Part shown: piece by piece, positions 11,523-11,806 of the stretch
Layout of the letters: each line of letters starts with the position of its first letter
Numbering within the stretch: position 1 is the first letter of the stretch
Source: a virus
DNA length: 14,145 nt
Reading direction: 5' to 3' (one strand)
Virus genome (UHGV): UHGV-0225651
The notes under the pieces: generated by a model
What the model was told of the DNA's origin: nothing
Databases searched by the model: none
Seen by the model: the letters and a program-made list of their open reading frames with translations, nothing else
Position numbers and translations under genes: made by a program

Positions 11523-11728
11523 ATTTTGAGAGGGCTATTTTAGCCCCTCCCTTAAAGGGTTCTTACGAGTATCCTTTAAAGGAGCAGAAGACCAAATACA
11601 GCAAGAACGTATGAAAATTTCAAGCCAATTTAATTTTGAAAAATTTAAAACTTGGTCTGGCTCAACAAATTTACAGAAGACCGTTTACAGCAAAACTTAA
11701 ACAATCTATTTCTCGGTAAAGAAAAGGC

Positions 11729-11780
11729 GAAGGTTCGATTCCTTCACTCGGCAGATGTCGAGTTGGTGTAATGGTAGCAC
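11729..11780 (+). ncRNA. Circularly permuted tRNA-like module (T-arm, loop-closed acceptor helix, D-arm); candidate tRNA mimic or permuted tRNA
   Basis: Canonical T-arm GAAGG-TTCGATT-CCTTC (11729-11745), then a 7-bp acceptor-like helix ACTCGGC/GTCGAGT closed by tetraloop AGAT (11746-11763), then TG and D-arm GTGT-AATGGTA-GCAC (11766-11780). No anticodon arm in the canonical position. Flanked by a complementary stem AGACCGTT (11678-11685) / AACGGTCT (11795-11802). Confidence 0.5.
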
Positions 11781-11806
11781 TTAAGATGATAAACAACGGT
11801 CTGGTA

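Follow-up and report, generated by a model that had tools for sequence, protein, structure and literature searches.

A probable YrlA-like RNA module with a tRNA-like insert in a phage tRNA array, downstream of a gene for a predicted Ro60-like protein

Organisation of the locus

The window analysed here, a 14,145-nucleotide stretch of the UHGV virus genome UHGV-0225651, carries on its plus strand an array of 18 tRNA genes at 10790-13916 (18 called by ARAGORN, 17 by Rfam). Between tRNA-Asp (11445-11522) and tRNA-Lys (11954-12029) the array has an unannotated gap, and neither ARAGORN nor Rfam calls a tRNA or transfer-messenger RNA (tmRNA) gene in 11523-11953. We identified in this gap a module of ~141 nt, M4 (11670-11810), which is probably a YrlA-like Y RNA, one of four such RNAs in the array (M1 to M4), for a divergent phage Ro60. 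A gene encoding a Ro60-like protein (9209-10624) is found on the same strand and ends ~1 kb upstream of M4. The 431-nt stretch around M4 recurs at 97-100% identity in more than 200 FelixO1-like phages, whose hosts are Escherichia, Salmonella, Shigella and Citrobacter; in relatives belonging to Suspvirus and Mooglevirus the identity is 75-90%. Features of the window described below are on the plus strand unless stated otherwise.

Two covariance models (CMs) were used, R1, built from five Ounavirinae, and R2, the family model. With R2, three siblings of M4 are recognised in the array, each consisting of a stem and a CAGCAA motif: M1 (10958-11039, E = 1.9e-6), with a plain loop, between tRNA-Glu and tRNA-Met; M2 (11124-11198, E = 1.8e-7) between tRNA-Met and tRNA-Asn; and M3 (11581-11665, E = 2.5e-4) directly upstream of M4. 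The window has four copies of AGACC-N3-8-CAGCAA where 0.03 would be expected, and four of GGTCTGG where 0.9 would be, all of them on the plus strand. All four modules fold with a common outer architecture, and their lower stems vary in sequence yet remain complementary (UGAC/GUCA, UUAC/GUAA, GAGC/GCUC). M1 to M3 have AU-rich plain loops, and the tRNA-like insert is found in M4 alone. Since the modules form tRNA-sized spacers between tRNA genes, excision of the flanking tRNAs would release them.

Structure of the tRNA-like module

M4 consists of a two-part outer stem, a long variable (V) arm, a T-arm, a 7-bp acceptor-type helix closed by an AGAU loop, the dinucleotide U8-G9 and a D-arm, in that order. 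The unconstrained minimum-free-energy (MFE) fold of 11670-11810 (-33.4 kcal/mol, z = -2.1) recovers every helix named in the first-pass annotation of this DNA, and the T-arm, closed acceptor helix, TG and D-arm that it had described on the plus strand all lie where it had placed them. M4 scores 147 bits with R1 and 120.5 bits with R2 (E = 1.6e-24). A strict scan for a T-arm with an abutting closed hairpin, two nucleotides and a D-arm with GG gave no match in five shuffles of ~1 Mb on both strands.

The outer stem was also foreseen in the first-pass annotation, which had proposed that flanking sequences pair in place of an anticodon stem; AGACCGTT (11678-11685) and AACGGTCT (11795-11802) are indeed complementary. 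In detail, the lower stem (helix 1) pairs UUAC (11671-11674) with GUAA (11804-11807), and the upper stem (helix 2) pairs AGACCGU (11678-11684) with ACGGUCU (11796-11802). Across a 27-sequence alignment, helix 1 is 92% paired with compensatory changes in 4/4 pairs, and helix 2 is 98.9% paired with compensatory changes in 7/7. The 4-bp lower stem is separated from the upper stem by an AGA/G internal loop, in which G11803 stands between the two 3' strands (column G221 of the alignment, 25/25). The A-U and G-C pairs at the base of the upper stem are nearly invariant in this alignment, and so is the 3' G that follows the stem.

After the 5' strand of the stem comes a single-stranded CAGCAA motif (11688-11693), which is the candidate protein-binding site. 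The motif is invariant in its columns C19, G21, C22 and A23 (27/27 each), with A20 at 26/27. A 4-bp remnant of an anticodon stem (11696-11699 with 11782-11785) is found in the window phage and is poorly conserved. The V arm is a hairpin of 8 bp with one bulge and a 6-nt loop (11705-11727), and is the least conserved helix in the fold (82% paired).

The tRNA-like part begins with the T-arm GAAGG-UUCGAUU-CCUUC (11729-11745), a partial match to the tRNA model; GGUUCRA..CC is invariant in the 27-sequence alignment. It continues with the acceptor-type helix ACTCGGC/GTCGAGT (11746-11752 with 11757-11763; helix 5, 96% paired, 7/7 pairs compensatory) around the AGAU loop (11753-11756). U8-G9 (11764-11765) and the D-arm GUGU-AAUGGUA-GCAC (11766-11780) complete it, and U8, G10, A14, G18, G19 and A21 are conserved within this segment (11764-11780).

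Covariation and conservation

Standard pairs fill 94.7% of the pair cells in the 27-sequence alignment, compared with 62% in shuffled controls and ~41% when partners are slid, and a 51-row set behaves similarly; the 27-sequence alignment was fitted to the model, which favours the structure. Compensatory changes are found in 32/35 pairs. All six helices covary across Felixounavirus, Suspvirus and Mooglevirus, and across unrelated metagenomic phages in which an R1 search found full-length relatives. The same helices appear in an independent MAFFT alignment of close relatives and in single-sequence folds of distant members. Distant modules were aligned under CM guidance, as MAFFT put their acceptor stems out of register. 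The folding and covariation analysis of 11670-11810 that the first-pass annotation had advised thus shows both the arrangement and the compensatory changes to be kept in homologous phages.

The acceptor helix provides the clearest example of rebuilding. Among the five Ounavirinae it reads ACUCGGC/GUCGAGU, ACACGU/GCGUGU with a UACG loop (SUSP2, Sf13 and ESh21), or ACCCUUC/GAAGGGU with a GCCAAACA loop (Maleficent), and the T and D arms are constant across the same five phages. In ESh21 a C-to-U change in the upper stem produces a G-U pair, which is a pair on the plus strand only; such G-U pairs place the RNA on the plus strand.

The nucleotides that form the tRNA elbow are conserved as well in the 27-sequence alignment (U8, G10, A14, G18G19, A21, GGUUCRA and C61-C62), and the elbow segments of the window read UG / AAUGGUA / GGUUCGAUUCC. 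The tRNA tertiary nucleotides by which YrlA RNAs are recognised (U8, A14, G18G19, A21, G53, U54 U55 C56, A58 and C61) are all present. The Levitt 15-48 pair is not obviously retained in the window, where A15 would face C48.

The Ro60-like protein encoded upstream

The open reading frame (ORF) at 9209-10624 encodes a protein of 471 aa with DUF2828 and DUF7788 domains, belongs to PHROG 850 ('RNA-binding protein') and is 97% identical to its ortholog gp130 of phage Bas63 (bas63_0130). Bas63 gp130 has been reported to be Ro60-like and to counter the Ppl defence (bioRxiv 10.1101/2024.10.10.617714). An AlphaFold2 model of the window protein, computed from a 38-sequence alignment, reached a predicted local distance difference test (pLDDT) value of 89 and a predicted template modelling score (pTM) of 0.88. 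Its top 12 fold matches in the PDB are all full-length Ro60/TROVE proteins (E from 1e-8 to 1e-6), with template modelling (TM) scores of 0.41-0.64 (0.52-0.64 for eleven of them). These matches comprise Ro60 of Thermus phage phiLo (9kop, the top match), Xenopus and human complexes, and Deinococcus Rsr; below them come isolated vWA domains only. The model thus combines a Ro60 ring, built of HEAT-like helical repeats, with a vWA domain whose MIDAS signature DxSxS is invariant (D279, S281, S283). On this model, its membership of the Ro60 group is one of fold and not of sequence.

Linkage of the RNAs to the protein family

We examined 80 viral contigs encoding relatives of the ORF at 9209-10624, of which 75 are not Felix-like and encode proteins of 39-47% identity. 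In these 75 distant loci, the strict stem-CAGCAA pattern matched 58 times on the gene strand and three times on the opposite strand, against 1.3 matches in shuffled sequence. Forty-two of the 58 lie no further than 700 nt from an end of the gene, in what is ~12% of the sequence; 28 loci are represented by these matches. An earlier and looser pattern of stem and motif had been noisy (144 on the plus strand, 36 on the minus strand, 42 in shuffles) and was then tightened. With R2, 48 matches were obtained at E <= 0.01, M1 to M4 included, and 48/48 lie on the gene strand. Taking the strict pattern and R2 together, a module is found in ~39/75 distant loci, which is a lower bound as many contigs are incomplete. 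At 15 loci the module stands beside the gene with no tRNA within 6 kb, which indicates that the RNA tracks the DUF2828 gene and not tRNA arrays. The stem-CAGCAA RNAs that accompany DUF2828 proteins are a broad RNA family, of which we found no description in the literature searched and no entry in Rfam.

The strict tRNA-mimic pattern gave non-tRNA matches in 9/75 loci; every one is on the gene strand, and several lie directly against the gene. These nine loci share (U)UNCAGCAA after the 5' stem strand and G(A/U)UAA after the 3' strand. Two further tandem tRNA-like modules are present just downstream of a 48%-identical homolog. Strict-scan matches at loci L040 and L043, and the R2 match at L011 (11278-11411), which is one of the 48, were recognised as junctions of tandem tRNAs and discarded.

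Members of the family differ in how much of a tRNA they carry. Three of them (L033 5784-5905, L029 5839-5950 and L018 1525-1642) combine the stem and CAGCAA with a T-arm and a D-arm and have almost no acceptor hairpin, which suggests that it is the elbow on which the mimic depends. In other members the acceptor loop starts with NCCA: GCCA in Maleficent (L003 659-714, GCCAAACA) and in L046 (7563-7618, GCCAATT), and ACCA and CCCA in the two modules of L073 (7843-7901 and 10527-10582, ACCAACTAT and CCCAAT). These letters hint at RNase P cleavage with 3'-end processing, or else at an origin from tandem tRNA copies; for the latter, they suggest the junction of tandem copies of one and the same tRNA.

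Some distant loci have further RNA-related neighbours. In one freshwater phage lineage (L090 and L091, 4279-8555) the DUF2828 gene lies between genes for a T4-type RNA ligase 1 and a metallophosphoesterase, a single observation that suggests an RNA-repair setting. In two metagenomic phages, tmRNA genes, one of them permuted, are found a few kb from the DUF2828 gene (L030 1317-1767 and L042 12694-13067).

Other features of the array

A scan for the consensus alone predicts two sigma-70-like promoters, each with 10/12 matches, in the stretch that separates the Ro60-like gene from the first tRNA (10643-10671 and 10734-10763). They are likely to mark the start of the array transcript carrying M1 to M4, as judged from their sequence. 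A further near-consensus sigma-70-type promoter, TTGACA-17-TATAGT, is located inside the array at 12278-12306. At 12511-12589 there is a weak tRNA match (Rfam, 31.7 bits) that is not called by ARAGORN, and related records annotate tRNA-Arg (TCT) at the equivalent position.

Two more structured segments share the gap with M3 and M4. Between M4 and tRNA-Lys, 11805-11953 forms three hairpins inside an outer duplex of ~24 bp (MFE -48.3 kcal/mol, z = -5.85). Between the window and Suspvirus/Mooglevirus the sequence inside this element diverges, yet 11 pairs altered on both sides remain paired. Rfam has no match for the element, which could serve as an RNase III processing site or be a stable RNA of another kind. 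Right after tRNA-Asp, 11528-11584 contains two conserved hairpins, GAGAGGGCUAUUUUAGCCCCUC and then CCUUAAAGGG...CCUUUAAAGG (z = -3.0), which are not a typical terminator since no U-run follows them.

In public records of related phages the annotation of this gap is in part wrong or questionable. In phage REP5, a 131-nt 'tRNA-Thr (GGT)' has been annotated across M3 and M4 (L001 1601-1731); this call looks like an artefact of an intron-allowing tRNA finder and we rejected it. In Bas63, two small minus-strand hypothetical ORFs, bas63_0137 and bas63_0138, have been placed over the RNAs (L086 2449-2723).

Comparison with known systems

The closest known relatives are the YrlA RNAs, Y RNAs of bacteria and phages that have a tRNA-like domain, are bound by Rsr/Ro60 and carry tRNA modifications such as pseudouridine 55 and dihydrouridine (Chen et al. 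2014, PMC4201824). Their hallmarks are ends that pair with each other, a GNCGAAN0-1G motif near the 5' end that presumably contacts Rsr, the succession of V arm, T-arm, closed acceptor and D-arm, tRNA tertiary nucleotides, and a same-strand Ro60 gene no more than 4 kb away. They are accompanied by siblings of the YrlB type (PMC4201824). Phage examples are known from mycobacteriophages, CcrColossus and Bacillus phage G, and the YrlA of M. smegmatis has a 7-bp acceptor stem, is a substrate of RNase P and receives CCA. M4 shares with YrlA the order of its arms within paired ends, the tertiary nucleotides, and a place within 4 kb of a same-strand Ro60-type gene, Ro60-like by structure only. M1 to M3, which do not have a full tRNA-like domain, resemble YrlB, and the 7-bp acceptor is that of M. 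smegmatis YrlA. Unlike YrlA, the window RNAs are spacers of a tRNA array, are present in four copies, and have as putative partner a DUF2828/DUF7788 protein that is not recognisable as TROVE by sequence.

Metazoan and Deinococcus Y RNAs likewise conserve a stem formed by their ends with an asymmetric internal loop, vary in their apical loop and occur as several paralogs per genome. Their binding site is GGUCCGA/UUGACU, whereas that of the window RNAs would be AGA-AG...CU-G with CAGCAA, and the window RNAs give no Rfam Y_RNA match. PNPase is the known partner of these Y RNAs, and could be assigned to the window RNAs by analogy only. Thermus phage phiLo (PMC12135203) also carries a Ro60-fold protein beside two Y-like RNAs, Yrl1 and Yrl2. 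In that phage, however, the protein is a recognisable Ro60 homolog, and what singled out the Yrl RNAs was a CGAA motif located within an internal bulge; no tRNA-like character is described for them (PMC12135203). In Bas63, gp130 is the same protein in the same place upstream of a tRNA array; the candidate RNAs equivalent to M1-M4 are unannotated spacers there, not annotated tRNAs, and lie partly under bas63_0137 and bas63_0138.

A comparison of another kind is offered by the permuted tRNA genes of Cyanidioschyzon merolae and by two-piece tmRNA genes. As in these, the 3' half of M4 (T-arm and 3' acceptor strand) precedes its 5' half (5' acceptor strand and D-arm). M4 differs from them in having no anticodon loop, no splicing-type junction motif and no tag reading frame, and in an acceptor end that, in most members, is closed by a tetraloop instead of being processed to CCA.

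Bacillus phage G (L092 1-4700), the single comparator with a canonical TROVE protein, has the same layout of gene and then array as the window, with TROVE gp540 followed on the same strand by a tmRNA gene and an array of tRNAs. In the gap before its tRNA-His (3501-3525) stands an orphan T-arm with exactly the sequence of the window's own (GAAGGTTCGATTCCTTC). The family model gave no full-length match in phage G outside tRNA and tmRNA genes, and its YrlA was not confidently identified.

Interpretation and alternative explanations

We consider it probable that M4 is a YrlA-like Y RNA, and the Ro60-like protein encoded upstream is most likely its partner. The first-pass annotation had raised the idea of a Y-RNA-like tRNA mimic partnering Ro60/Rsr. 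The YrlA order of the arms, the covariation, the upstream gene with a Ro60 fold and the recurrent linkage of RNA and gene in other phages all support it, and from them we infer binding. M4 is classed as a variant of YrlA and not as a plain member, because CAGCAA replaces the GNCGAA motif and the protein is Ro60-like by fold only.

Several observations weigh against this reading. The window RNAs do not have the conserved GNCGAAN0-1G of YrlA, and have CAGCAA after the stem, an AG...CU stem base and a 3' G in its place. No GNCGAAN0-1G is found between the 5' stem and the V arm of M4. A GGCGAAG at 11726-11732 does fit the motif, but it sits at the junction of the V arm and the T-arm and is lost in Maleficent and ESh21; given this overlap and its poor conservation, it is probably coincidental. 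The Y RNA covariance-model search that the first-pass annotation had advised did not yield a Y_RNA match, as Rfam 15, with its tRNA and Y_RNA models included, assigned M4 to no family at gathering or permissive thresholds. Apart from noise, a permissive Rfam scan of 11500-11980 returned nothing but a partial match to tRNA at the T-arm (14.9 bits, E = 3.5). On the protein side, Pfam recognises DUF2828 and DUF7788 only in the ORF at 9209-10624 and does not match TROVE, and sequence searches of the PDB with phmmer and with a profile found no Ro60 and no solved structure. Our searches found a module in only about half of the distant loci, many of which are on incomplete contigs. Finally, gp130 alone, supplied from a plasmid or inserted in T7 without RNAs of the M1-M4 type, restores plaquing on Ppl hosts (bioRxiv 10.1101/2024.10.10.617714), which means that the phage RNAs are dispensable for the Ppl phenotype or that host RNAs can substitute for them.

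The last of these results would also suit a different explanation, in which the modules act in cis and punctuate the tRNA operon, as spacers or as hairpins for folding or processing, and direct the cleavage of its polycistronic transcript by RNase E, RNase III or RNase P. On this view they would bind no partner protein and do nothing in trans. The placement of M1 to M4 exactly as tRNA-sized spacers between tRNAs agrees with this, as does the 24-bp RNase III-like duplex after M4. We nevertheless regard it as quite unlikely. In at least 15 distant loci a module abuts the DUF2828 gene and no tRNA is closer than 6 kb, the bias in strand and position is tied to the gene, and an invariant CAGCAA together with a conserved elbow exceeds what a cleavage hairpin needs.

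That M4 is a permuted or split tRNA gene is very unlikely. The first-pass annotation had offered a permuted gene needing circularisation as its second reading; circularisation of this kind is known from the permuted tRNAs of red algae. Alternatively, the acceptor loop could be opened by RNase P, trimmed at the 3' end and given CCA, to leave a two-piece and possibly chargeable tRNA. The acceptor of 7 bp has the length that makes M. smegmatis YrlA a substrate of RNase P and recipient of CCA, and acceptor loops starting with NCCA are found in four relatives; processing of some members is thus possible. On the other hand, no anticodon loop is present or can be rebuilt, and the anticodon side runs into the stem that M4 has in common with M1 to M3, modules with no tRNA parts. 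The loop is AGAU in the window and UACG in SUSP2, Sf13 and ESh21, neither containing CCA, and most relatives have stable tetraloops here. Some family members have T and D arms and no acceptor hairpin, and ARAGORN calls neither a tRNA nor a permuted tmRNA at M4.

Less likely again is a functionless remnant, either a decayed or rearranged tRNA pseudogene, as the first-pass annotation had allowed, or a junction of two tandem tRNAs. M4 does lie inside a tRNA array, tandem-tRNA junctions do imitate the pattern (the false positives at L040, L043 and L011), and one record annotates its 131-nt 'tRNA-Thr' there. But no complete tRNA overlaps M4, the sequence is 97-100% conserved in more than 200 Felixounavirus records, and decay is contradicted by compensatory changes that keep each helix paired from genus to genus and in phages that are unrelated. 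Least likely of all is a protein-coding region on the minus strand, where a 76-aa ATG ORF (11671-11901) exists and several GenBank records annotate hypothetical proteins such as bas63_0137 and bas63_0138, for the ORF of Maleficent is 48 aa long with another sequence and extent, the frame differs between relatives, close relatives differ by indels of 1, 2 and 4 nt, and substitutions track base-pairing and not codons.

The data above show how the YrlA-like RNA is built, that it is conserved and that it is linked in the genome to the protein family, and from them we infer how it may be transcribed, processed and bound. M4 would be transcribed within the phage tRNA array, and an RNA of ~130-140 nt would be released by the enzymes that excise the neighbouring tRNAs. 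The bulged, two-part end stem and the single-stranded CAGCAA could then form the docking site for the ring of the Ro60-like protein. The apical part would present a tRNA elbow of T-loop and D-loop with a closed acceptor helix and no anticodon, and hence a tRNA-like surface for some tRNA-recognising factor that can be neither decoded nor charged. By analogy with the Ro60-Y RNA-PNPase complex, the RNA may serve as a tether or a gate of the ring protein in the handling of structured or damaged RNAs during infection, phage tRNAs perhaps among them.

To a wider proposal we give a modest chance, well short of even. DUF2828 Ro60-like proteins and stem-CAGCAA RNAs might together form a large undescribed class of phage ribonucleoproteins, in which the elbow mimic is the active anti-defence part. 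It might recruit a host enzyme that handles tRNAs, or act as a decoy for an immune sensor of tRNA integrity, and so protect or repair the tRNA supply of the phage. Members with NCCA loops may be opened by RNase P into two-piece molecules with CCA ends.

Conclusion

Ro60-Y RNA particles are conserved from bacteria to humans, and their RNA partners are known in few systems. Through our analysis, a phage Ro60-like protein of known phenotype, the countering of Ppl in Bas63, gains candidate partner RNAs. The recognition motif of these RNAs is unlike that of canonical Y RNAs, and the pairing reaches a large family of phage proteins still called a 'domain of unknown function'. In hundreds of FelixO1-like genomes used for phage therapy and typing, it also accounts for gaps in the annotation, for small ORFs that are spurious and for odd calls of a '131-nt tRNA'. 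Overall, the natural series of members with or without an acceptor stem, and with NCCA loops, can reveal which parts of the tRNA shape such mimics need.

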